Shown here in pieces: positions 4,200 to 29,867 of a stretch of 64,000 nt of DNA; positions within the stretch are counted from its first letter, which is position 1; the number at the start of each line of letters is the position of its first letter. The position numbers and the translations under genes are program-made. Under the pieces are notes generated by a model. That model was not told the DNA's origin. It made no database searches and was given only the letters and a program-made list of their open reading frames with translations. The stretch is from a virus. The stretch covers positions 1 through 64,000 of the IMG/VR virus record IMGVR_UViG_3300031718_000001. One strand, given 5' to 3'.

Positions 4200-6323
4200 G
4201 TGGCCATCAGCCGCTGGGAGACCCCGGATACGGCACAGGCCGGGCCGCTGGACGTGATGGCCTGGTTCGACGGGCCGCCGGTTCCCGACCCGATCACTTT
4301 CATGATCGGCGAGGACTGGCTGGACAAGCCGAACCTGTACCCGCGCCAGGCCACGCTGATCAAGATCATCTTCCTGCGGGATGACCTGTTCACGGAGTAC
4401 GACCGCCGGGTCATCGCCGAGTGGCAGCAGCGGTTCACCGAGACCAACCCGGACGCCGTGGACAATAAGTTCGACGCGCGGACGAAAGGCCTCCAGCCGG
4501 ACCTGTTCGAGCGGATCGCCTATCTCAAGGCGCGCGGCTACCGGTGGTTTCCCGAGCTGATCATCGCGATCGGCCGCCGCGGGTCCAAGGGCTACCTGTC
4601 CGCGCTGTGCATGGCCTACGTGCTGTGGAACTACCTGTCCAAGGGCAACCCGCAGGAGTACTACGGCATCGACTCGAACAAGCCGCTGGCCTGCGCGGTG
4701 TTCGCCGGCAAGAAGCAGCAGGCGATCGAGAACCTGTGGGGCGACCTGTACAGCGTGCTGACCACGGCGCCGTGCTTCACCGGCTACATCAGCGAGGCCC
4801 AGGTCGAGTCGCTGACCATCTACGCGCCGTACGACTTCGTGCGGATGCACAAGCTGGCCCAGCGGGGCATCGCCTCCAGCAAGGACATGGCCACGTTCCG
4901 GGTGGTGCCCCGCGAGTCCACCCCCATCGCGCCCCGCGGGCCGGCCGGCTGCATCCTGGCCTTCGATGAGGCCGCGCACGTGAAAAACGCGGGCGTGACC
5001 CGCGAGTTCGGCATCGTGTACGGCGCGGCGAAGCCGTCCCTGGACCAGTTCGGCACCGACGGCTTCGTGGTGCTGCCCTCCAGCACCTGGGAGATGATCG
5101 GCAAGTTCTACGAGCTGTGGGAGCTGTCGCTCCAGCGCGAGCAGGACGGCGAGGACGGCGAGTACGTGCCGGCCTACCCGGACAAGTTCATGGTCCAGCT
5201 CGAATCCTGGGCGATCTACGAGGACTGGGAACTGGCCCCGCTGCTGCCGCTGTTCCCCGGGGGGTTCACGGGCGACCTGGACGAGTACGACCCGGAGGCG
5301 CTCCCCCGGCTCGGCAAGCTGAAGGGCGCCATCCAGGCCTATGACGAGGGCATGGCCCGCGAGGAGAAGGCTAACCCGGACACCTTTGCCGTAGAGAGGA
5401 GATCAGACTGGGCGACCGCGATGGACGCCTACCTGAACGCAGCCAGGATCGACGCGATGTTCGAGCCGTGGACTGACCGCCTGCCGGAGAACGGGCGCCC
5501 CGAGCTGGTCATGCAGACCCGCGGCCCGCTGTCGGTCACCTACACCGCGCACGGCGACCCCTCGTCGGTGAACTGCCGGTTCGGCCTGGCGGTCGCGCAC
5601 ACCGAGCACGACGACGCGGGCCTGGAGCATGCGGTCTTCGACCTGATCCACTTCTGGGATCCGGCCGACTTCGAGGATCACACCATCGACTATGACGAGG
5701 TGCGGGACTGGATCTTCGACAACGTGATCATCCGGTTCATGCCGGATGAGATGACCTTCGACCAGTTCAACTCGGTCGCCAGCGTCCAGGCCCTCCAGAA
5801 GAAGGTGCGCGGCGAGCGGCTGCCCAAGAACATCGTGGTCTACGAGCGCACCGCTACCGCCCCGCTGAACTGGATGACCTGGGAGATGTTCAAGGCGGCG
5901 CTGAACATGGGGTTCGTGCACAGCCCGGCGCATGCCGAGGCCAAGGACGAGCTGCGGTTCGTGCAGAAGCCCGAGGGCGTCCAGAAGGTCGTGCCGGCCT
6001 CGACCGGCCCGGTGCAGACCAAGGACATCGCCGACTGCATCGCGATCGTGACCGCCCGGCTGCTCGGCGAGCAGATGAAGGCCTACCTGGCCAAGGACCT
6101 GAAGAACCAGCGCCCGCACGTGTCGCAGTTCGGCGGCCAGGACGCGCTCGACCGGTTCAGCCCCGAGCACATGAACCCGTACGCCGCCTCGCTGGGCGTC
6201 CCGTCCGGTATCCGCGGCGGCCTGGCGCGGGGCATGAGGCCGGCCCCGGTGGGCAGGGGAGGCAGGACCGGCGGCGGCCGTCTGGGCATGAGCCCGCTCG
6301 GCGCTCGCCGTCACCGCTCGTGA
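4200..6323 (+). CDS. terL: terminase large subunit
   Basis: Walker A IGRRGSKG, Walker B LAFDEAAH, C-terminal RNase H-like acidic motifs HGDPS, TFDQFNS, KDIAD. Confidence 0.9.
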   Translation: MAISRWETPDTAQAGPLDVMAWFDGPPVPDPITFMIGEDWLDKPNLYPRQATLIKIIFLRDDLFTEYDRRVIAEWQQRFTETNPDAVDNKFDARTKGLQPDLFERIAYLKARGYRWFPELIIAIGRRGSKGYLSALCMAYVLWNYLSKGNPQEYYGIDSNKPLACAVFAGKKQQAIENLWGDLYSVLTTAPCFTGYISEAQVESLTIYAPYDFVRMHKLAQRGIASSKDMATFRVVPRESTPIAPRGPAGCILAFDEAAHVKNAGVTREFGIVYGAAKPSLDQFGTDGFVVLPSSTWEMIGKFYELWELSLQREQDGEDGEYVPAYPDKFMVQLESWAIYEDWELAPLLPLFPGGFTGDLDEYDPEALPRLGKLKGAIQAYDEGMAREEKANPDTFAVERRSDWATAMDAYLNAARIDAMFEPWTDRLPENGRPELVMQTRGPLSVTYTAHGDPSSVNCRFGLAVAHTEHDDAGLEHAVFDLIHFWDPADFEDHTIDYDEVRDWIFDNVIIRFMPDEMTFDQFNSVASVQALQKKVRGERLPKNIVVYERTATAPLNWMTWEMFKAALNMGFVHSPAHAEAKDELRFVQKPEGVQKVVPASTGPVQTKDIADCIAIVTARLLGEQMKAYLAKDLKNQRPHVSQFGGQDALDRFSPEHMNPYAASLGVPSGIRGGLARGMRPAPVGRGGRTGGGRLGMSPLGARRHRS

Positions 6324-14500: not shown

Positions 14501-15598
14501 CACCGGTCGCCGTACGTCCAGCACGGCCGCACCTGGAGCACGCCAGGTGGCGCAATGGGCAGCGGCGAGACGCCCGAGCATGCCGCTCTGCGCGAGGCCC
14601 GCGAGGAGATGGGTGAGCTGCCCGGTGACCTGGAGCACCACCACACGGTCACCGATGACCACGGCGGATGGTCCTACCACACCGTGGTGATGGACTCGCC
14701 GACCAGGTTCCGCCCCAGCGGAAGCGGCGAGACCGACTGGGAGAGCGAGGGCAGCGGCTGGTTCACCCCTGGCGAGATCCAGGGCCTGCCTCTGCATCCC
14801 GGGTTCCGGTCGAGCTGGGACAAGGTGCAGCACTCAGGATCGCTCCGGGTCGTGGCCCTGGACGACGTGCCCGCCTTCACCCACCGCTACCTCTCGGCCC
14901 AGCCAGACGGCGGGTACGCCGAGCGCGAGGAGCTGGTCCAGGGGCCGTTCTACCACGGCAGCCGGTCGAAGCGGCTGGGCGAGGGCGCCGAGCTGACTCC
15001 CGGCCGCAAGACCAACGGCTGGGGCGACGAGGGATCGAAGTCGCAATGGGTGCACTTCACGACTGACCTGGGCGGGGCAGCCGAGTACGCGCGCCAGGCA
15101 GGCGGACACGTCTATGAGGTCGAGCCGCACGGTGACGTGCAGATGGGCTACAGCGGCAGCGATTGGAAGTCGAAGGGGGTGCTGCGCGTCCGCCGCGTGG
15201 TCCCGCCGGAGGAGATCGCCAGGCACCAGGCCCGGACAGGCCAGCTCATCGTCGCCGCGAACGTCTCCGATCATGTCCTGACCCGGGGTGCCCCGATCCC
15301 TGCCGCGGCTGACGTGCATGCGGCTATCGGCGCCTGGACGCCGCAGAACGCCCGCGAGGTGCATGAGTGCCTGGATGAGTTCCCGCTGCTGTTCCGGGCA
15401 CTGCACGAGGGCCTGGCCGAACTGGCGCACGAACTCGAAGGCACACCGGTCAGCGTCCATCTCATCGCCATCGTGCGCAGGATGGCAGCGTGCTGCCAGG
15501 GCGCGGCCGAGGACGCCACGGAGGTTGCCGGACGCCCGCTGGATGGCGCAGAAGGTATGTGGGAAGGATCGCGAGCGTCAGTCGGCCCAAAAGCCTGA
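11507..15598 (+). CDS. giant polyvalent protein 2 (ART-PolyVal-like, ART-like, ParB-like, zinc ribbon, 2x Arr-like ART, NUDIX, C-terminal helical domain)
   Basis: WFHGT..GTHFT..LRNP..GHDGV; ADGHHR; LFHGT..VYQVEPTG and FYHGS..VYEVEP Arr-like motifs; NUDIX box GGAMGSGETPEHAALREAREE; SD AGGAG. Confidence 0.8.
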   Translation: MPLDEPGFPNPHTGQDEWFHGTRAYPEDLSQHGFMDPMDIDRGGYEDPDAETTGHWNALLGTHFTADHKVAHEFATGEHDSGENDPGGEPWRPAYQGVVHARLHLRNPKIYDSEHDMDHEAYEHEFAAGNHPSNHVPLLDSDDEDDRYEAEDMWPHADRLHQEYGNREIPRSAYTPYGTDGAGHPERTLWLSTHPDRHDIAERFRQRLQAQGHDGVVYGNEYEKSQHGRKAVSAIAFHPDQVDIRQHHHAEHTCMDPEEAAAHRGRLPGLGQEALPGLDDYSISRQALVQHFAADEEFDHPEFGNFDEEYGLYHHPDHGWHCHACGDFHDDAETATRHQDSYTDWGRVHPGLPEHMHRGLALQLPAELHDAVHDESAPVERRGRMLLEHLGEDGHGTHWTPDEEQAAHYAGVSAHQNAGTWHGGSGQTHVILHARRPAIDDIETDPDTLADQDVISFGDHDDAEIPIRQGAPVHLTGISWKRADAPDTAWQQHDLPQTHLGALEMTAGDADEGLTWDEIGERHPALYGDPEIHGEAAEGADGEGIGDVAGHLAYDRPGHNYAEGTGEEHPSYTGLRFYPRTIDPARIDYARHGSDDQRVRNARAGYSGAHPDHVPPLILVHRHGVFQVADGHHRGEGASLAWRPVAAYVAYSPHEHEPFSDGERGPFHGAETEEQHALERDTEGGRMSYPGFPHTAETPHPVTAALVSHFAELEPPKYHPEARCPMCGGRNYEREERPGYIPEGSRAPAYCRNCGEAFDASRSGREIAEEREREHREWEEATRNRRYNGEALFHGTRSELHPGDLLTPDEAERHRAHPDEDSRGYMHATTVGEEAYGWGERASGAETHERMTELGRGRPMPAGHSQGEAYRPRVYQVEPTGPVEYDPNGEGEAFRSAHPLRVVQEVHPLVCYHEDHEGEYHWPDHEHYEFLKQQEDDEHEDDDDDWGHEAAAIASADEHDGDGYTVCDQGHEHWGLNGAAGLLVRHHDDDGETRYLLQHRSPYVQHGRTWSTPGGAMGSGETPEHAALREAREEMGELPGDLEHHHTVTDDHGGWSYHTVVMDSPTRFRPSGSGETDWESEGSGWFTPGEIQGLPLHPGFRSSWDKVQHSGSLRVVALDDVPAFTHRYLSAQPDGGYAEREELVQGPFYHGSRSKRLGEGAELTPGRKTNGWGDEGSKSQWVHFTTDLGGAAEYARQAGGHVYEVEPHGDVQMGYSGSDWKSKGVLRVRRVVPPEEIARHQARTGQLIVAANVSDHVLTRGAPIPAAADVHAAIGAWTPQNAREVHECLDEFPLLFRALHEGLAELAHELEGTPVSVHLIAIVRRMAACCQGAAEDATEVAGRPLDGAEGMWEGSRASVGPKA
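15586..15592 (+). other. candidate -1 frameshift slippery heptamer C CCA AAA
   Basis: X XXY YYZ in the zero frame, one codon before the stop; the -1 frame stays open for 934 codons. Confidence 0.7.
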
Positions 15599-20212: not shown

Positions 20213-21193
20213 ATGGCCCCGCCGCCGGGCGCGCTTCCTGCGGGGAGCGCGCCCGTGCCATGTGAGGACGAGGGAAGGGCGGGCGGGACGGTTAACGGCC
20301 TGATAACGAGGTCTGGCGCCTGGTCCGGTGAGCGCGCCCGGGTCAGTGCCTATGTCGTCCACTGCAAGCACGCGCTCTATGACGTGTATGGCGGGCGTCC
20401 CGGGCCGCTAGGCAACCCGTTCGTCATCGGCACCGATGGCAGCCGGGCTGAGGTGATCACCAGGTTCGAGGAGCACCTGCTGAGCACGCCTGCGCTGCTC
20501 GCAATGCTGCCTGAACTGCGCGGGAAGATAATCGGCTGCTGGTGCGCTCCACGGCCATGCCATTGCGAGGTACTGGCCTGGTACGCGAACTGCGGGGAAG
20601 GAGTATCACAGATGGATAAAGAAGCTCAGCTAGCTGCGCTGTATGCCGAGTACGCGACGAGCCCGGTCCTCCAGCAGGTTGCCGACGGCAGGCGGCTGGT
20701 GCGCGGTTACGGCCCGCTCGAAGCCCCGCTGGTCGTCATCGGCGAGGCCCCGGGCGAGCAGGAGGACATCCAGGGCCGTCCGTTCGTCGGGCCGTCCGGA
20801 CGGCTCCTCCAGGAACTGTTCGCCAGGGCGGAGCTGCCCTGGGATCTGTGTTATGTAACGAACGTACTGCCATGGCGACCGCCCGGCAACCGCACGCCGT
20901 ACCAGTTCGAGATCATCGCCAGCTACCCGCGGGTCGAGCGCGAGATCGACCTGATCCAGCCGGTGCTCGTGGTGGCGGCCGGGTCCGTCGCCTGGCATGC
21001 GGTCAGCCAGGCCGAGCTGGGTGCGTTCACCACGGCTCGCGGCCACTGGATGCAGGTGCCCTGGAAGGACTGGATGGTGCTGCCGGTGTTCCACCCGAGC
21101 GCCATCCTGCGGGCTCACGGCACCGAGCGAGCCCAGATGGAGGAGCAGACTATCCGCGCCCTGCGCAGTGCCCTGGCCGGCGCCGATGCCTGA
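20213..21193 (+). CDS. udg: DUF4326-like domain in frame with a family-4-type uracil-DNA glycosylase (internal start at 20612)
   Basis: GRPGPLGNPF..GCWCAP.PCH (DUF4326-like); IGEAPG..E...GRPFVGPSG, TNV, RPPGNRTP and FHPS (UDG family 4). Confidence 0.8.
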   Translation: MAPPPGALPAGSAPVPCEDEGRAGGTVNGLITRSGAWSGERARVSAYVVHCKHALYDVYGGRPGPLGNPFVIGTDGSRAEVITRFEEHLLSTPALLAMLPELRGKIIGCWCAPRPCHCEVLAWYANCGEGVSQMDKEAQLAALYAEYATSPVLQQVADGRRLVRGYGPLEAPLVVIGEAPGEQEDIQGRPFVGPSGRLLQELFARAELPWDLCYVTNVLPWRPPGNRTPYQFEIIASYPRVEREIDLIQPVLVVAAGSVAWHAVSQAELGAFTTARGHWMQVPWKDWMVLPVFHPSAILRAHGTERAQMEEQTIRALRSALAGADA

Positions 21194-21740: not shown

Positions 21741-22426
21741 TGCTGGCGGCACGCCAGCTCCTGGACTCCGGTGCCCGCGTGGTGCTGACCCGGCGTCAGC
21801 TCAGGGACCTGATCGGCCTGGCAGAGAAGCAGGGCCTGGAGCCCGTCAGGAAGCCCGACACGGGCCGTCAGCAGTGGTACGGCCGACTCCATGGCTGGAG
21901 CGCTGAACGTGTCCGTGCGGGGCTCTCAGCGGCCGAGGTGATAGGCCTGTGGCTCGACTTCCTCGACGCGGGCCGGATACCCCCGCTGCGCGTCCGTGAC
22001 CTGACCGCGATCGTCGATGTGATCAGCCGCCGTGACCCGTCCGTGATCGTTACCACCGCGTTACCCGGCTTCTCGCGTGACCTGGCGCCCGGCCGCAGAA
22101 GGGACAGGAACGCCCTGAGATGCGGAGGAACCGATGACAGATCGCAGCGCCCTGGTAGCGGCCGTCCAGACCGCCGGCAGCGGGGCAGCGCTCGCCCAGG
22201 CCGTCGCGACGCTGGATGCCCACGACCGCCACCGCGCCGCAGCGCTCAATGCCCAGCGCGACCTCGACCTGGGCGTGCAGATCGTCGCCGAGCGGCTCAC
22301 CCCCGTCCCGCTGCACGAGCATCACACCGCGGCCACCGACTGGCTGGGCGACTACCAGGAACCCGCGGACGGCACCTACCGCACCGCGATGATCGCGGAG
22401 GCATCCGTCTGGTACCGCGGCCTTGA
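21566..22426 (+). CDS. hypothetical protein with N-terminal C..C..H..C zinc site (3' overlap suspicious)
   Basis: TTG with SD GGAGG; coding-like to about 22050. Confidence 0.45.
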   Translation: MSTTTVWEAGLTCDAEGCGGEFTLGEEIIYWYGRKLHQKCASADAASRREASGEDGDVMLAARQLLDSGARVVLTRRQLRDLIGLAEKQGLEPVRKPDTGRQQWYGRLHGWSAERVRAGLSAAEVIGLWLDFLDAGRIPPLRVRDLTAIVDVISRRDPSVIVTTALPGFSRDLAPGRRRDRNALRCGGTDDRSQRPGSGRPDRRQRGSARPGRRDAGCPRPPPRRSAQCPARPRPGRADRRRAAHPRPAARASHRGHRLAGRLPGTRGRHLPHRDDRGGIRLVPRP

Positions 22427-23747
22427 CCCGGCCGTCCGCGGGGATGCCCAGGAGCTGGCCGAGCAGGCCCGCGGCCGGGCGCGCACCGCTGCGTCCGCCT
22501 TCGGCGCCCAGGCCGTCGCAGCCCAGCATGAGTTCCTCCAGGTGGTCAGTTACCTCCGCATGGCCGAAGGTGCCAGCGGGCTGCCGCAGATCGACCAGAC
22601 CATCGACCCGAACAACCAGCCGAGCGCCACGCCGTACCCGACCGAGGTGTTCCCGACCTTCGGCGAGGAACAGGACCCGTATAACGGCGTCGAGACCAGC
22701 AACCACCAGTCGGGTGCGGCCAGCGCCGGCGCTCCGCTGATCCAGCAGGTCGAGCAGCAGAACGCCTCGGGTTCCGGCTTCGGGACCGGCCCGGAGAAGC
22801 CTGACGAGCACAGCCTCGGCTTCGACACGAGCAACTCCTACGCCGAAGTGCCGCTCGGGCCGCCCGGCCAGATCCCCACGGCTCCCGCCGCGACGGACCA
22901 GATGGCCTCCAGCCACCCGAACCCGGTGGCGGGCACCATCCAGGATGCCGGGAGCGACCGGCGCCCCACCGTGGCGCACATCGAGGGCTACAGCCTGCCG
23001 GACCCGTTCGGCTACCGGTGGCCGATGACCGGGGAGGTGCACCACCCGTTCCACGAGCGGTGCGCCAGCGCGCACTGGCCGGATGAGTCCTGCGGCGACC
23101 GCACGCACACAGCGTCCATGGCGGTCGGGTACATGATGAACCTGGATCAGGCCCGGCGCCAGGCTGCCTGCGAGGCCGTCGGCGTGCGCGAGGGAGTCCG
23201 GATCGTCGCTTCAACCGGCTCGCTGGCCGAGCTGGGCGGCTATCACAACCGGTTCGCCGCCGCCTGGAACGGCTCGGGCCGGACAGCCGACGACACTGCG
23301 GTGCTGCACGGGTTCATGGCCGTGGTGCGCCCGGTACTGGCCGAGGTAGGCCAGCGGGAAGCCAAGTCGTGTGACGAGTGCGCCTCGGGCAACTGCCAGA
23401 ACTGCAAGGGGCACGGCTGCACGTGCAGCAAGTGCACCACCCAGTTCGGCCCGCGGCCGGGGAACTCCAAGACCGCGGCAGGCGGCCTCGCGGCCGGAGG
23501 CGTTACCGAGCACGAGCGCGAGACCGCCACGCATCACCTGCCCGGCACTGACGGCAAGTTCCCGGTCAACGGCCCGGCCGATGTGGAGAACGCCAAGCAC
23601 GACATCGGCCGGACTAATGAGCCGCACGCAAAGGTGGTCCGGTACATCAACGAGATGGCGAAGGAGTACCACGTCGCGCCAGTCGGCGGCAGCCAGAAGG
23701 CCGCAGCCCTGGGGAGGGAGCCAAATTTTACGGTCACGGCGCTCTGA
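22134..23747 (+). CDS. putative head/internal virion protein, short form
   Basis: SD GGAGG; Pro/Gln/Ala-rich, [KRH]TA linkers, Cys cluster, DUF6582-like KFPV..NA segment. Confidence 0.65.
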   Translation: MTDRSALVAAVQTAGSGAALAQAVATLDAHDRHRAAALNAQRDLDLGVQIVAERLTPVPLHEHHTAATDWLGDYQEPADGTYRTAMIAEASVWYRGLDPAVRGDAQELAEQARGRARTAASAFGAQAVAAQHEFLQVVSYLRMAEGASGLPQIDQTIDPNNQPSATPYPTEVFPTFGEEQDPYNGVETSNHQSGAASAGAPLIQQVEQQNASGSGFGTGPEKPDEHSLGFDTSNSYAEVPLGPPGQIPTAPAATDQMASSHPNPVAGTIQDAGSDRRPTVAHIEGYSLPDPFGYRWPMTGEVHHPFHERCASAHWPDESCGDRTHTASMAVGYMMNLDQARRQAACEAVGVREGVRIVASTGSLAELGGYHNRFAAAWNGSGRTADDTAVLHGFMAVVRPVLAEVGQREAKSCDECASGNCQNCKGHGCTCSKCTTQFGPRPGNSKTAAGGLAAGGVTEHERETATHHLPGTDGKFPVNGPADVENAKHDIGRTNEPHAKVVRYINEMAKEYHVAPVGGSQKAAALGREPNFTVTAL

Positions 23748-23767
23748 CCAGGACAGCCCAGAGCGCC
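23723..23767 (+). other. candidate -1 frameshift signal: A AAT TTT plus downstream stem-loop/pseudoknot
   Basis: heptamer 23723-23729; GGCGCTCTG (23738-46) pairs with CAGAGCGCC (23759-67); GGTCA (23732-36) pairs with TGACC (23745-49); GGAGG at 23713-17. Confidence 0.75.
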
Positions 23768-25495
23768 CTCTCGCCGCAGGATATGGTCGCCGGGATGCCG
23801 GCCATGTCTGCCTCCGGCGACATGGCCGCCGCGACGCCCGGCGCGGAGGAGGAGACCGCTGGCAGCGTCAGCAACACCGCCCCCATGGGCGCGTCCGCCT
23901 CGGTGCGCCAGGGCGCCAGCGGGCTGACCCAGATCCAGCAGGTCACCGACCCGAACAACGCGCCGAGCCCGCAGGATGACCAGCTTCCCGAGGGCGTCAT
24001 GTTCCCGATTAACGAGAGATGGTCTCAGCAGTGGGTCACCGGCCCGCAGGGCGCCCAGCCCCAGGGCGCCAAGGAGGCCGCCCGCCAGAACGGGCTGCCG
24101 ACCCGGGCGGCGGAGATGTTCGGCCGGATGGACGCCATGGACGGGCGCCAGCCGCAGCACAAGGACGAGTTCGCCTACTCCAAGATCCAGCACGGCCGCT
24201 ACCTGGGCGGCTGGAATGAGACGGCCGGCCTGATCCACGGCATGGTCGGCCGTGCCCCGATGTCCAGGGACGAGTACACCAGCGCGACCGGCCGGCCGGA
24301 CCTGCATCCGCACTACCTGTCCGCGTATGCCCAGGGCCGGAAGATGAACTCCAGCACGAGCGGCCCGTACGGCGACAGCCAGCAGCTAACCGCCGCGCTC
24401 CAGGTCCGGGCCGATACCTGGACCTCGCCGCACCAGACCACTGATGACCTGAATCCGCCGTACAACTCCCCGGCCACTGCGCCGCAGCCGGCCAGCCAGA
24501 ACATGGACCCGCGCGCCCAGGACTACGCGGCTGGCCAGAAGGCAGGCAAGGACGACAAGGCGAGCGGCCAGCGGCCGGCCTTCGCCGACAACTCCTCGAC
24601 GGTCTCCCCCTACGTCAAGGGGTATGCCGAGGCCTACGGCGCCCCCGCGGCTCCGTCGGATCAGATGGACGTGCCCGCCAGCATGGAACCGGGCGCCGAC
24701 TCGGGGCAGGCCCTGAACACCCAGCAGGCGCAGCAGGCCTTCCAGGTGGCCCGCGCGTCGCTCTCGTTCGCTCCTGCCGAGCTGTTCCGGGATGCCGACT
24801 TCTCGAAGGGCTACCTGTATGCCTCGAAGTGGCGGCCTGGCACCCGCCTGGTGTCCCGCGGGTCGGCCAGGTTCGAGGCCGGGCTGTATGCCGGCATCAC
24901 CGACTCGCCCGCCAGTCATCAGCAGGCGTGGCTCTCGGCGCATGCGGCTGCGTCCGGGAGCCACCCGGTCCTTGCCAGGCGGATCGCCCTGCACCGCTCG
25001 TTCACCCGCAAGCACGCCAGGAAGACGGGCCTGCGTGCCCAGGGCGCCTACATCCGCAATGCGGGGGTGTCTACCGACCTGATCACCGACGGGCCGGGTA
25101 CCTCCCCGGACCCGATGGGCGCGACGCCGCTGAACGGGCCGGGTACCGCACCGGAGATGGCCGGGGCGAACAACGCGAACGCACCGGGCGGCTCCCCGCC
25201 GTACCAGGGTGCGCCGCCGCTGCCGGGCGGCCCGGTGGTATCCGATGACGTGATGGGCAGGCAGCAGGAAGCCCCGCAGCCGTCCGGGCCGTTCACCAAC
25301 ACGTTCTCCGGCCGGCACCCGGAGAACGTCACCCTGGCTCCCGTGGCGCCGAACAGCGCGGCCGGGCCGGGCTACTCGAACAGGAGCGCCTACTCCGGCG
25401 ACCCGCTCGGCGGCGACCGCACGGCGAACCTCAGACTGGCCGCGTTCCGCGAGCGCGTCCAGCAGGGACTGGCTCAGATGGGAGTACCGGCATGA
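23729..25495 (+). CDS. putative head/internal virion protein, -1 frame extension of the 22134 ORF (first ATG 23783)
   Basis: frame open from the slippery site; repeats the GASGLxQIxQxxDPNN motif of the upstream ORF. Confidence 0.65.
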   Translation, partial: YGHGALTRTAQSALSPQDMVAGMPAMSASGDMAAATPGAEEETAGSVSNTAPMGASASVRQGASGLTQIQQVTDPNNAPSPQDDQLPEGVMFPINERWSQQWVTGPQGAQPQGAKEAARQNGLPTRAAEMFGRMDAMDGRQPQHKDEFAYSKIQHGRYLGGWNETAGLIHGMVGRAPMSRDEYTSATGRPDLHPHYLSAYAQGRKMNSSTSGPYGDSQQLTAALQVRADTWTSPHQTTDDLNPPYNSPATAPQPASQNMDPRAQDYAAGQKAGKDDKASGQRPAFADNSSTVSPYVKGYAEAYGAPAAPSDQMDVPASMEPGADSGQALNTQQAQQAFQVARASLSFAPAELFRDADFSKGYLYASKWRPGTRLVSRGSARFEAGLYAGITDSPASHQQAWLSAHAAASGSHPVLARRIALHRSFTRKHARKTGLRAQGAYIRNAGVSTDLITDGPGTSPDPMGATPLNGPGTAPEMAGANNANAPGGSPPYQGAPPLPGGPVVSDDVMGRQQEAPQPSGPFTNTFSGRHPENVTLAPVAPNSAAGPGYSNRSAYSGDPLGGDRTANLRLAAFRERVQQGLAQMGVPA

Positions 25496-26502
25496 CCGAG
25501 TGGAGCGGCGACATGTGGGCCGAGGCCTCAGCCGATCACGACCTGATGGCCCGCGAGGCCGCGCTTGCCCTGGCCGATGCCGAGCTGGAGGCGATCATGC
25601 CATTCCTGCTCGCGTCACGGTCAGCATCGGAGTTCACGCACCGCAGCGCCCTGGCCAAGGCGTCGATCTGCTCGATCGCCGCGCGGTGCGGGATCAGCGA
25701 GGATGACCTGATGGCCACGGCCCGGCGCCATTACGAGCTGTACCGCAAGGCGCTGGCAGAGGGCACCGACCCGGTGATCTCGCTCGAACCGCTGCTGAAC
25801 GGAGGCCAGGGCGGCCCGGAGAAGCCGGACGAGCACGACACCGGCCCGGACTTCAGCCACGGCTACAGCGAGGTTCCCGCCGGTCCTCCGGGCGGTCCTG
25901 ACCCGGCAGTGACCCGGCCACGGCCGCCCTCGACGGGTCCTGTCCAGGAGGCTACCGGCGCGGTACGGCGGCAGGCCCAGGGCGGCAGCATGACGATGCC
26001 CTACACGCCGATGGCGCCCGACACCGGCACCGGGGCAGGATCGGTGGACATGGGCACTCCCGCGGCTAACGGAGGCGGCCTTTCTGCGAGCCTTCCCGCT
26101 GGCATGGCCGGGAACGGCGACGATACCACCCCGATCACGCCGCCTTCGATCGGCCAGGTAACCTCATCAGCCGATCCGGTGCGGCGCAAGGTGATGGCCA
26201 TCACCGCGGCGATCTCGGCAACCAACCCGGGCTTGCCGCAGGACGAGTGCGAGCGGGTCGCGCGCCAGGTGGTCGGCCGCTACTTCTTCGAGGCTGACCT
26301 GAACGGCAGCGTGATGAACGATGAGCCGGTGAACGACGGCGGAGGCGGATCAGGAGGCTCCGGCGGTTCGGGCGGCGGAGGCGGATTGCTCCAGCACGGC
26401 CTGGAGTGGCAGGGCCTGAAGTCGATGATCCCGGGCGGCGGCGAGGCAGCGGCCGGAGGAGGCGCTGCCGAGGTTGCCGAGCTGGGCGCGCTGGCCCTCT
26501 GA
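25492..26502 (+). CDS. putative head/internal virion protein
   Basis: ATGA overlap; shares the GPEKPDEH..Y.EVP.GPPG motif with the 22134 ORF; Gly/Pro-rich. Confidence 0.6.
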   Translation: MTEWSGDMWAEASADHDLMAREAALALADAELEAIMPFLLASRSASEFTHRSALAKASICSIAARCGISEDDLMATARRHYELYRKALAEGTDPVISLEPLLNGGQGGPEKPDEHDTGPDFSHGYSEVPAGPPGGPDPAVTRPRPPSTGPVQEATGAVRRQAQGGSMTMPYTPMAPDTGTGAGSVDMGTPAANGGGLSASLPAGMAGNGDDTTPITPPSIGQVTSSADPVRRKVMAITAAISATNPGLPQDECERVARQVVGRYFFEADLNGSVMNDEPVNDGGGGSGGSGGSGGGGGLLQHGLEWQGLKSMIPGGGEAAAGGGAAEVAELGALAL

Positions 26503-26944: not shown

Positions 26945-27724
26945 TCATCCTTTCCACTGGTCGCGGCCGACATCCCAGGTTTCCTCGGCCGGCCGCGGAC
27001 GGTCGAGGCGCTTGATCTCATCGGTGTGCAGCCGCTCGAACTCAGCCTTTGTGTCGTCGGCGTGACCGGCCATGTTCGTCAGGTGGTGCGCCAGGTCGCC
27101 GACGGGCTCGGGAACTGCCCCGAAGTACGTCCAGGGCAGGCCGGTCAGTATCTCGGCTACCTGGTACGTGCACGCAGCCATCTCCTCCATATCCTCGCGG
27201 TGAGCGGTCAGGAACGCCCGGATCTCGTTCGCCGAGCACGGGCCGAACCGGTCCATCCTGGACATGACCTCATCGCACTGGCTGACCCAGCCCGAGCTGG
27301 CCAGTGACTCCGCGGTGCTCTCTGCCTGGTCCCTGGCGCGCTCCGCTTTCTGGAGCCGTCTCCTCGCCTGCGCGAGCCGTTCCGTGGCCGCGGCGACAGC
27401 AGCGGCCCGTGCTCCGTGGCAGCCGGTGCACGGGTCGCTCACGCTCATGCACTGTGCACCGGACAGCTCGCCGACGGCGTTCCTGACCCCCCGTCCGGCC
27501 TGCTCCAGCTCCTGGCCGAGGCGCTCCTCGCCCTGGCGGAAGGCGCTCAGGGCGAACCCGGCCTGCTCGGACGCGGCCCCGAACCGGGCGGCCTGCTCAC
27601 CCATGTTCTCGGCCGTGAACCGGCTGACCGGCAGGTCATCGCTGAACTTCCCCTCGACGAAGGTGCCAGCCTGCTGGCACTCCGAGAGCATCATCGGCAT
27701 CTGGTCAAGAGGAGGAACGTTCAT
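26945..27724 (-). CDS. coiled-coil protein with C-terminal helical domain resembling Streptomyces plasmid transfer-region proteins
   Basis: ends FERLHTDEIKRLDRPRPAEETWDV; aligns by eye with the 41200 and 41883 proteins. Confidence 0.5.
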   Translation of the reverse strand: MNVPPLDQMPMMLSECQQAGTFVEGKFSDDLPVSRFTAENMGEQAARFGAASEQAGFALSAFRQGEERLGQELEQAGRGVRNAVGELSGAQCMSVSDPCTGCHGARAAAVAAATERLAQARRRLQKAERARDQAESTAESLASSGWVSQCDEVMSRMDRFGPCSANEIRAFLTAHREDMEEMAACTYQVAEILTGLPWTYFGAVPEPVGDLAHHLTNMAGHADDTKAEFERLHTDEIKRLDRPRPAEETWDVGRDQWKG

Positions 27725-29163
27725 GTGCTCAATGCTGCCCTTATCGCCTCGCCGAAAGCACGCGCGACCGGAGGCGGGAATGCGTTGCCGACCTGCCGGT
27801 AGGCGGCCGTCTTGCGTCCGGAGAACGCCCAGTCGTCCGGGAACCCCTGGAGCCGGGCGACCATCCGGATAGTCAGCCGGGGCACATGGTCCGCGGGCGC
27901 GTCAGGTCCGGGTGCTTCCTCGGCTATCGAGCCGCCGTTGACGCCCAGGGCCTTCCAGGCGGCGCGAGCCCGCGTCGGGCCGAGATCCGGGCCGCCGTGC
28001 TTCTTGGATCCGCCCACGATCGTCGGGGCGACGCTGTTGGCTCCCAGCGCCCATTCGCAGGCGCCTTCCCATCCGCGAGCGGCCATGAGGTCGTACAGGG
28101 TCGTGCTGACGGACGAGTTCATGCCGGCCGTCCCGGCCGGCCAGGTGAACCGGTCGCAGTACCGCATCTTCAGGGCGACGAGAACGACCCGGGGCCGCAA
28201 CTGGGGAACTCCGTAGTCGCAGGACCGGATGGTCTTCCACTGCACGGCATAGCCCAGGTGCCCCAGCTCGGCGGTGATCTCCTGGCGGTAGGACCTGAAC
28301 CGGGCCTGAGCGAGACCCGGCACGTTCTCCAGCATCACAGCCCGCGGCCGGGTCTCGTGGACGAGGCGCACCGCCTCCTGGAACAGGTCACGGTCGTCAC
28401 CGGCTCCGAGCTGCTTGCCGCCGACGGAGAACGGCTGGCACGGCACGCCGCCCGCCAGCAGGTCGATGCCCGTGCCGAGCGGGCCGCGGAATTGGCGGCC
28501 GTCGAGGTCCCTGATGTCGCCCTCGATCACCTTCCAGCCGGGCCTGTTGGCGCGCAGCGTATTGCAGGCGTCCGGGTCGATCTCGGCGATGGCCAGATGC
28601 TCGAACCCGGCCTGCTCCAGGCCGAGGGCCTGTCCCCCGGCACCCCCGCAGATCTCCAGGACGCGGAGCTGCGTGCCCATTCTGCGGGCCTTCCGTACGC
28701 GCATGCTCGCGAGCAGCTCGTCTGTCTGGAAATCGGCGATGACCTCGCGGCCATGGACCGGGCTGAGCGCCACCGAGGTGACGCCCTCCTTGGCAAGGGC
28801 GCGGATCACCGAGCGGCCGGCGCTGCGGGATGCACTCACCCAGCCCTGGCCGGGGATGAAGTAGGCGCTGATGAAGACCTGGTGGGTGCCGAAGTACTCG
28901 CGGACGACCGGAGCGGTCTGCTCGTAGAGCTGGCCGACGAACATCGTCTTGCAGCGGTCCCGGTCCTGCTGGGTGCGGGTGCGCTTCCACACGGAGTCGC
29001 GGGACCAGCCGTGCGCGGCGAGGTGCCACTTGCCCTCGTAGTCCTGGATGATGCCGGCGGTGTCGTAGCCGCCGCTGGTCCGCTCGGTCACCTCGGTGCC
29101 GTCGGGTGCGGTGATCACCAGCGTCTTCAGGATCCTGGTGGGGCTGCTGTTGGTTCCGCTCAT
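27721..29163 (-). CDS. dcm: C5 cytosine DNA methyltransferase (M.NaeI/M.NgoMIV-like) with an in-frame 161-aa N-terminal domain; MTase domain begins at ATG 28680
   Basis: EICGGAGG, GGVPCQPFS, ENVPG, QLRPR, RLQGFP, QVGNAFPP; TRD GGSKKHGGPDLGPTRAR. Confidence 0.9.
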   Translation of the reverse strand: MSGTNSSPTRILKTLVITAPDGTEVTERTSGGYDTAGIIQDYEGKWHLAAHGWSRDSVWKRTRTQQDRDRCKTMFVGQLYEQTAPVVREYFGTHQVFISAYFIPGQGWVSASRSAGRSVIRALAKEGVTSVALSPVHGREVIADFQTDELLASMRVRKARRMGTQLRVLEICGGAGGQALGLEQAGFEHLAIAEIDPDACNTLRANRPGWKVIEGDIRDLDGRQFRGPLGTGIDLLAGGVPCQPFSVGGKQLGAGDDRDLFQEAVRLVHETRPRAVMLENVPGLAQARFRSYRQEITAELGHLGYAVQWKTIRSCDYGVPQLRPRVVLVALKMRYCDRFTWPAGTAGMNSSVSTTLYDLMAARGWEGACEWALGANSVAPTIVGGSKKHGGPDLGPTRARAAWKALGVNGGSIAEEAPGPDAPADHVPRLTIRMVARLQGFPDDWAFSGRKTAAYRQVGNAFPPPVARAFGEAIRAALST

Positions 29164-29199
29164 CGCGCGCTCCTCGCTGTCTGGTTCCTTGCTAAGACG

Positions 29200-29228
29200 A
29201 CAATAGCAAGAAACCCTGTATCGTGCAA
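29200..29228 (-). promoter_or_regulatory. promoter for the MTase operon
   Basis: TTGCAC-17-TATTGT with element. Confidence 0.7.
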
Positions 29229-29235
29229 ACAAGGG

Positions 29236-29276
29236 CGGCCCGCAGCGGAGGCGGGTGTCTCCTGCTGCGGGCCGCG
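29236..29276. terminator. strong hairpin, probable terminator upstream of a promoter
   Basis: GCGGCCCGCAG...CTGCGGGCCGC inverted repeat. Confidence 0.55.
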
Positions 29277-29288
29277 GCTTGAGGGTAG

Positions 29289-29867
29289 CTAGATGATCGG
29301 GTTGATGGACCAGCCGGCCCGGATCCAGCGGCCGGGGTTCCACCTGTGCCGCAGCTCGTGCCGCAGGATCTCAGCGGCCAGGGCCTGGTCGTTGGCGTCG
29401 GAGAACGGCCGGTAGAAGATGTAGCCGTCCCTGGCCACCCAGTAGTTGGACTTGACCCGGTTGCACCGCGCGCACAGGATCGTCAGGTTCCACAGCGCGC
29501 TGAGCCCGCCCCGGCTCCACGGCTTGACGTGATCGATCTGGAGATGCTCGGGCGATCCGCAGTAGCAGCAGCGGTACCGGTCGGCAGCCATGACCGCGCG
29601 CTTGAGCCAGGCGTGCCAGCCCGGCCGGCTCTTGCCGTGCCGCCACCAGATCCTGGTCCTGTCGGGGATGAGCAGCAGGGGCAGCGAGTGAATGGAGACC
29701 AGCGCCCCCGGCGTCATCACGCCCAGGACCAGGGCCGGCAGGAAGAACAGGCCGAAGCCCACGCCTGCGGCCGGCTCGTGCAGGTCGATCCACCCCCATA
29801 CGGCCGCCAGGGGCAGCACGGAGGACGACAGTGGCATGACCGGGCTGTTCCGGCGGCGGGCGCTCAT
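29289..29867 (-). CDS. HNH endonuclease with N-terminal hydrophobic (TM) segments
   Basis: CCYCG..LQIDHVKPWSRGG..NL..LC..CN..K. Confidence 0.85.
   Translation of the reverse strand: MSARRRNSPVMPLSSSVLPLAAVWGWIDLHEPAAGVGFGLFFLPALVLGVMTPGALVSIHSLPLLLIPDRTRIWWRHGKSRPGWHAWLKRAVMAADRYRCCYCGSPEHLQIDHVKPWSRGGLSALWNLTILCARCNRVKSNYWVARDGYIFYRPFSDANDQALAAEILRHELRHRWNPGRWIRAGWSINPII

Follow-up and report, generated by a model that had tools for sequence, protein, structure and literature searches.

Programmed −1 ribosomal frameshifting is likely to be the selected function of a conserved slippery site that joins two long open reading frames (ORFs), here termed A and B, in a virus genome from IMG/VR. 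The stretch analysed (the window, 64,000 nucleotides) comprises the first 64 kb of record IMGVR_UViG_3300031718_000001, a 165,085-bp genome that has direct terminal repeats and is rated complete. The GC content of the window is 68%. ORF A (22134–23747, plus strand) encodes 537 aa, has about 110 homologues in the protein collection, and its 3′ end reads CCA AAT TTT ACG GTC ACG GCG CTC TGA. The heptamer A_AAT_TTT (23723–23729, plus strand) stands within this end in the X_XXY_YYZ phase of ORF A, inside the 124-nt overlap of the 0 and −1 frames. The −1 frame is open from about 23621 to 25495, and from the heptamer onwards it continues through a linker into ORF B (23729–25495, plus strand; 588 codons plus stop). 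Its first ATG, GTG or TTG codon is the ATG at 23783. The expected products are A, of 537 aa, and an A–B fusion of 1120 aa.

In the proposed mechanism, a ribosome translating ORF A would reach A_AAT_TTT with its P site occupied by Asn-tRNA and its A site by Phe-tRNA. Some of the ribosomes would slip back by one base, with the two tRNAs re-pairing to AAA and TTT, and the slip would probably be aided by a hairpin 8 nt downstream and perhaps by an upstream G-rich tract resembling a Shine–Dalgarno (SD) sequence. Slipped ribosomes would read ..EPNF-YGHGALTR.. through the linker and ORF B, giving the 1120-aa fusion, and those that do not slip would end at the TGA at 23745–23747 (plus strand), five codons after the heptamer, and release the 537-aa A. 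That ribosomes slip here, how often they do so and what the hairpin and the SD-like tract contribute are inferred from the patterns described below.

An earlier note made from the window alone had proposed a −1 frameshift at this heptamer, with products of 537 and about 1120 aa. Comparative genomics supports this proposal well. All of the sequence features that the note had listed, namely the ORFs, the in-phase A_AAT_TTT, the GGAGG, a 9-bp stem, the open −1 frame and a repeat shared by both halves, were present where it had placed them, and the trans-frame peptide that it predicted, EPNFYGHGALTR, reads correctly from the sequence. The AAATTTT string occurs only once in the 64-kb window. A scan of the whole 165-kb genome for A/T-type heptamers standing in phase in the overlap of two long ORFs returned only 23723–23729 and a C_CCA_AAA at 15586.

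Conservation of the site and frame layouts in relatives

Relatives were collected from IMG/VR, JGI metagenomes, Logan, ENA and one NCBI metagenome-assembled genome (MAG), mostly as contigs of ~160–166 kb. Searches of the region, A and B with megablast and tblastn against the INPHARED phages and the PLSDB plasmids gave no match. The gene order was kept in the relatives, with a uracil-DNA glycosylase (UDG), small ORFs, A, B and an ORF of ~330 aa followed by a DNA methylase on the opposite strand. Comparison of these sequences established the frame layouts, the conservation of the slippery pattern and the existence of modules that lack a start codon.

The linker motif was searched for with a protein-level pattern, [LP][DN]F, which is blind to codons. 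An N_NNT_TTY heptamer was found in phase at the homologous linker position in every distinct junction carrying the linker motif (22 of 22, from independent assemblies), with the variants A_AAT_TTT, G_GAT_TTT, G_GGT_TTT (encoding L-G-F, in L097) and A_AAT_TTC (in L099). The earlier note had named a heptamer that is not conserved in homologues as the result that would speak against the shift; among relatives with the linker motif, the nucleotide sequence of the heptamer was retained without exception. The [LP][DN]F motif was encoded by GAT TTT or AAT TTT in 18 of 18 cases, and in the same ORFs TTT accounts for 4.6% of the codons for Phe, AAT for 7.2% of those for Asn, GAT for 14.6% of those for Asp and CCA for 3.2% of those for Pro. 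The codon 5′ of AAT, which provides the first heptamer base, was always CCA, and that 5′ of GAT or GGT was always CTG. Elsewhere in B, 'PDF' motifs were written with GAC TTC codons. The residue encoded by the second heptamer codon changes among N, D and G, and the slippery pattern stays. Each slippery codon is the rarest of its synonyms, and AAC TTC or GAC TTC would encode the same residues, so that selection appears to keep the slipperiness of the sequence.

The heptamers observed are of a kind known to shift. Heptamers of the H_HH.U_UU.Y type and U_UU.Y tetramers are among the most shift-prone sequences in E. coli, and the A_AAT_TTT of the window belongs to this efficient class (PMC4066793). 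Variants with G_GA in the P site are known from umbraviruses, dianthoviruses and flaviviruses (PMC5009743).

Three architectures were distinguished among the relatives. The split class comprised 11 distinct junctions (the window, L082, L084, L087, L088, L018, L019, L097, L098, L099 and L100), in which the 0-frame stop lies 1–9 codons past the heptamer and the −1 frame remains open for hundreds of codons into B. This stop stood exactly one codon past the heptamer in 9 of the 11. The fused class, also with 11 distinct junctions, has A–B as a single ORF of 1000–1400 aa with the heptamer still inside, and about 32 of the 36 long (fused) database proteins carry the linker motif. The separate class (e.g. 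L003 and L004; ~70 database proteins) has an A that ends in ..APVG(G)K and a stop before the motif, the heptamer motif is lost, and B has its own AGGAGG N5-6 ATG/GTG.

The fused junctions carry a stop in the −1 frame at 0, 0, 0, 0, 1, 1, 1, 4, 4, 4 and 9 codons past the heptamer, and these stops arise by varied sequences (TAG, TAA, TCG TGA, TCC TGA and ..CGC TGA). Under a null model conditioned on the T-ending codon, such a stop is expected at 0 codons in 25% and within 4 codons in 30% of cases. It was found within 4 codons in 10 of the 11 fused junctions (P = 5e-5); as some fused junctions share ancestry, the true significance is lower than this value, although still clear. Given the nearby stops, in the 0 frame of the split forms and in the −1 frame of the fused forms, both layouts would therefore give a short A that ends just past ..[DNG]F together with a long A–B. 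In the 'extend' layout, represented by the window, A would be made in the 0 frame and the longer A–B by way of the −1 frame. In the 'truncate' layout, which is that of E. coli dnaX, A and B share one frame and a slipped ribosome would meet a −1 stop immediately. The two layouts appear to be interchangeable, each yielding A and A–B, which would suggest a high slip efficiency.

Further evidence came from split forms whose conserved −1 frame lacks a start codon. For L084 and L087, this frame reads S-L-T-A-E-A-L-R after the heptamer and then enters a conserved KGAPFAGY..CGEIKH module; none of ATG, GTG or TTG occurs in it between −156 and +168 nt around the heptamer. A similar start-less −1 frame leads into a DPDxDGDDDS module in L097 and L100. 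The starts that gene callers assign to such B genes fall within the conserved ASGLxQVQQ motif or 3′ of it. The 'RTA linker' that had been pointed out right after the shift in the window is not a conserved feature, as the relatives have S-L-T-A there. The 0-frame stop of the window sits in C-TGA-CC, which is read as Leu-Thr in the −1 frame, and the same CTGACC or L-T context is found in L082, L084, L087 and L018.

The A–B linker was also observed to be a hypervariable cassette region (e.g. L084:4602–4760, L098:4081–4330 and L003:6540–6700). The cassettes are combined differently among relatives and include a ~40-aa KGAPFAGYxDFxxC..DPxAYCGxIKH unit, a DPDxDGDDDSTPxGDTDHDWW unit, Cys-rich Zn-ribbon-like units and larger inserts, or none, as in the window. 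In L019 (5985–6560), the −1 frame that follows G_GAT_TTT CAG TAG stays open for no more than 177 codons, across an insert module, and the B homologue lies in yet another frame with its own Met. A slip in L019 would extend A by the module, not by B.

The candidate stimulatory signal and alternative explanations

Two candidate stimulators flank the heptamer of the window. The G-rich SD-like tract GGGGAGGGAG (23711–23720, plus strand) contains GGAGG at 23713–23717 and ends 2 nt before the heptamer. Its duplex with the anti-SD sequence (−11.2 kcal/mol) falls in the top 1% of local 16-nt windows, and anti-SD complementarity upstream of the heptamer is enriched in the family, lying below the 25th percentile in 15 of 18 related junctions. 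On the 3′ side, an 8-nt spacer (23730–23737, plus strand) separates the heptamer from a candidate hairpin (23738–23767, plus strand) with a 9-bp GC-rich stem (23738–23746/23759–23767) and a 12-nt loop. This hairpin (−18.5 kcal/mol) is only mildly unusual at such a GC content, with a z of −1.97 when compared with shuffles and a rank at the 16th percentile among local windows. Most junctions of the relatives can form a GC hairpin starting 5–8 nt 3′ of the heptamer; among the junctions compared, these hairpins showed no alignable covariation, and an Rfam search of 23500–24000 returned nothing meaningful. The H-type pseudoknot put forward in the earlier note as an alternative fold finds little support, since it would leave a 2-nt spacer and since neither the pseudoknot nor the window stem is kept in the closest relative.

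Several observations weigh against a selected frameshift, or against parts of its proposed signal. A large clade of relatives keeps A and B as truly separate genes, so covalent fusion is not essential to the family. The peptide motif KAAS..R[LP][DN]F is itself conserved, and part of the conservation is therefore at the amino-acid level. The B frame of the window has an in-frame ATG 54 nt past the shift, from which some independent initiation is possible. The SD-like stimulator of dnaX works at ~10 nt from its heptamer. The SD-like tract of the A/B family is only 2–6 nt from the heptamer and coincides with conserved G-S-R or G-R-E codons, so that it may reflect this conserved peptide and not a stimulator. 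As for the hairpin, the family mean z is −0.77 against dinucleotide shuffles, with a median local percentile of 0.16 (L084 reaches z = −3.55), and the stem sequence of the window is changed in the 93%-identical L082, where a different hairpin forms.

The first three of these observations are also what favours the best of the rival explanations, namely that A and B are two ordinary genes. A would simply end at the TGA at 23747 and B would start at the ATG at 23783, and the AT-rich codons would be kept for another reason, such as the C-terminal peptide together with a rare-codon pause at the domain boundary. We consider this explanation unlikely. The ATG at 23783 is almost devoid of an SD sequence, with a poor duplex energy of −2.0 kcal/mol, compared with −9.5 for the start of A, −10.4 for the B gene of L004, and the AGGAGG N5-6 arrangement of the separate B genes in relatives. 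Those true separate B genes also have conserved N-termini, e.g. M-T-A-S-V-L-P-R-G-H-F-L. Just 5′ of the ATG at 23783, the sequence A-L-S-P-Q-D aligns with D-L-S-T-Q-D, which is coding in the fused, 80%-identical L086, and the ATG is GCG there. Moreover, two ordinary genes would leave unexplained the start-less conserved −1-frame modules of the relatives, the restriction of the first heptamer base to that supplied by CCA or CTG, the retention of the slippery pattern despite the change of residue (N, D, G) and the −1 stops right past the heptamer in the fused forms.

A different possibility is that ribosomes slip here at a low level without any selection for it, as a by-product of an unavoidable slippery peptide-coding sequence, with the nearby stops acting as fail-safes. 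Stops in the wrong frame close to the heptamer would indeed also limit the damage done by accidental slips. The sequence is, however, not unavoidable: it is built from the least used synonymous codons, and replacing them with AAC TTC or GAC TTC would abolish slipping at no cost to the protein. In the split forms, moreover, translation of the long conserved B frame relies on the slip. We regard unselected slipping as very improbable.

It is even less probable that the true gene is a fused A–B ORF from which one base of the A3T4 run is missing through assembly error or a recent frameshift mutation. In favour of such a lesion, one extra A or T in the run would bring A and B into a single frame, and L086 is among the relatives in which they are fused. 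Against it, the closest lineage (L082/L083, 93% identical to the window in A), recovered from two JGI samples, shares the split layout of the window and its AAATTTTACGGT, and a third assembly from ENA has the same layout, seen at the gene-layout level only. Ten other distinct split junctions are known, several of them identical across independent assemblies (that of L018 in 5 assemblies; L084, from the NCBI MAG, equals L085, from a Logan run). The difference between split and fused forms goes beyond homopolymer length, and random lesions would not repeatedly fall on a heptamer that is in X_XXY_YYZ phase and close to a 0-frame stop. Transcriptional slippage was rejected, as the runs are no longer than A3 and T4.

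Evolutionary history, gene neighbourhood and other candidate sites

A tree of 33 A sequences was built with IQ-TREE and rooted at the midpoint. Forms bearing the heptamer were found on both sides of the midpoint root and on basal branches, and at least four changes between split and fused forms are forced by well-supported branches. The window and L083, which are split, together form the sister group of the fused L086, within a split clade. The separate class on this tree consists mainly of one derived clade of 13, plus two other rows. Based on these positions, the site looks ancestral to this gene family of ~160-kb, GC-rich, uncultured actinobacterial phages from soil, with repeated flips of layout and a few losses.

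At an efficiency of about 50%, as in dnaX, a single-base change can reverse which of the two products needs the slip (PMC5009743). The repeated flips of layout in the A/B family thus suggest a high slip efficiency, similar to that of dnaX. We lean, with only slight confidence, towards a history in which one ancestral, high-efficiency −1 site was kept throughout, with at least four flips between the extend and truncate layouts and two or three replacements by gene fission. If this is true, the family would form a natural series in which recoding, gene fusion and gene splitting are interchangeable ways of setting the ratio of protein with and without the C-terminal half. An efficiency of about 50% would then be predicted at a U_UUY-type heptamer in actinobacteria.

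The identity of the two proteins was approached through their sequences, predicted structures and neighbours. ORF A comprises a helical N-domain, an ASGLPQIDQ..DPNN motif, a disordered region, a Cys-rich segment and a C-terminal tail that reads ..KAAALGREPNF-TVTAL before the stop. A second motif copy, ASGLxQIQQ..DPNN, lies in B (23912–23968, plus strand) and is paralogous to that at 22569–22625 in A; the two copies match at 82% at the DNA level, and ASGLxQIxQxxDPNN is common to both halves. Pfam and PHROGs searches with A, B, the fused relatives and the neighbouring genes gave no match for A or B, and PDB sequence profiles for A and B gave only noise. AlphaFold2 returned models with a predicted local distance difference test (pLDDT) score of 63 for A (31 sequences) and 60 for B (40 sequences), with helical domains joined by long disordered linkers. 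Foldseek searches of the A and B models against PDB and BFVD produced no match at E<=0.001. As no family, sequence or fold match was obtained for A or B, we did not adopt the 'head protein' label of the earlier note, nor the idea that the fusion is head cargo; a role in the virion remains compatible with the lack of head-protein matches but is not supported by the analysis.

The neighbours of A and B are DNA-metabolism genes. Just 5′ of A is a fusion of DUF4326 with uracil-DNA glycosylase (20213–21193), which is conserved in most relatives. An ORF of 336 aa (25492–26502) overlaps the end of B by its stop/start, which indicates translational coupling; it is conserved in all relatives and has no family match, and because its only PDB matches are the Gly/Ser linkers of single-chain variable fragment (scFv) constructs, it must contain a low-complexity stretch rich in G/S. 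Downstream of B lies a DNA methyltransferase (27721–29343, minus strand) of 540 aa with methyltransferase matches only. Its homologue (at least 660 aa) in a close relative on the ENA contig ERZ27236881 has Hint/intein-splicing Pfam matches. Upstream of A and B, a weak TerL match (4200–6323) and giant multi-enzyme ORFs were observed.

A second site of the genome stands at 15586–15598 of the window, where an in-phase C_CCA_AAA GCC TGA is followed by a −1 frame that is open for 932 codons; its local design is that of most split A/B junctions. Motifs of the C_CCA_AAN type, as well as G_GUU_UUC-like motifs, are used by bacterial ribosomes (PMC5009743, PMC4066793). The homologous enzyme domains (giant protein 3) are contained in single ORFs of 1113–2860 aa in four related genomes, and the junction cannot be aligned. 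The suggestion that two such sites reflect a general recoding scheme in this phage is thus borne out as far as the existence of a second site is concerned; the general scheme is not, as the junction cannot be traced in relatives. A T_TTA_AAG at genome position 107034 (minus strand), which lies outside the window, was rejected: it falls in AT-rich intergenic DNA before an HNH/AP2-type endonuclease gene, and its 'upstream ORF' is a spurious antisense frame.

Comparison with known frameshift systems

In several known systems, ribosomes that slip into the −1 frame shortly before an upstream ORF ends make a fusion product, including gene 10A/10B of phages T7 and T3 and orfA–orfAB of IS3 and IS911. 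The A/B site resembles these in its position. Unlike them, A carries no evidence of being a capsid protein or a transposase, and the extension is a full second multi-domain protein. The tail assembly chaperone G/GT of phages offers another parallel, as there too a conserved −1 slip in a double-stranded DNA (dsDNA) phage yields a short and a C-terminally extended protein, in G/GT at a fixed ratio. The A/B genes differ from G/GT in their neighbours, which are a UDG and a DNA methylase and not a tail tube or tape measure gene, in their far larger proteins (537 and 1120 aa) and in the lack of homology. We know of no G/GT in the truncate layout.

At the level of the heptamer, the A/B family resembles the RdRp site of umbraviruses such as pea enation mosaic virus 2 (PEMV2) and groundnut rosette virus (GRV), in which G_GAU_UUU, with its non-canonical P site, and A_AAU_UUU alternate between relatives at one shift site (PMC4737148, PMC5009743). 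As in PEMV, a 0-frame stop one codon 3′ of the heptamer is the arrangement seen in 9 of the 11 split junctions (PMC5009743). Umbraviruses, unlike the A/B family, are eukaryotic RNA viruses that use long-distance RNA stimulators, shift at low efficiency and always have the extend layout.

In the A/B family, gene callers either truncate B or start it inside conserved sequence. A and B of the ~160-kb soil phages are best annotated as a single recoded gene that has two products. To our knowledge, conserved frameshift sites in dsDNA phages have rarely been documented beyond tail chaperones, a few capsid genes and insertion sequence (IS) elements, and they are missed by annotation pipelines. In the A/B family, a single site is represented by at least 22 natural variants, which span four heptamers and both layouts, and a clade without the site can act as a control. 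This provides a comparative set for relating slip efficiency to gene architecture in hosts of high GC content, whose DNA otherwise has few runs of the U_UUY and A_AAN types.

The tau/gamma system of E. coli dnaX uses an A_AAA_AAG heptamer, an upstream SD-like AGGGAG and a 3′ stem-loop. Like dnaX, the A/B site would give two products with a common N-terminus from a putative three-part signal of G-rich SD-like tract, heptamer and hairpin. In the fused relatives, the −1 frame closes within 0–9 codons, so that slipping would produce the short product, as it does in dnaX. The layout of the window is the reverse of this. For dnaX, such a reversed layout, with the long product made by frameshift, has been reported in some bacteria, and the logic of a 1:1 ratio has been discussed (PMC5009743). 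The A/B family is distinguished from dnaX by the absence of any sequence relation to DnaX, by a heptamer of the U_UUY type in place of A_AAG, by an SD-like tract at 2–6 nt from the heptamer where that of dnaX is at about 10 nt, and by at least four flips of layout within one phage gene family. As judged from sequence comparison, the A/B site is very probably a conserved programmed −1 frameshift of the classical type in a new phage gene family, and it is of note for its occurrence in both layouts and for the clade of relatives that serves as a no-site control.

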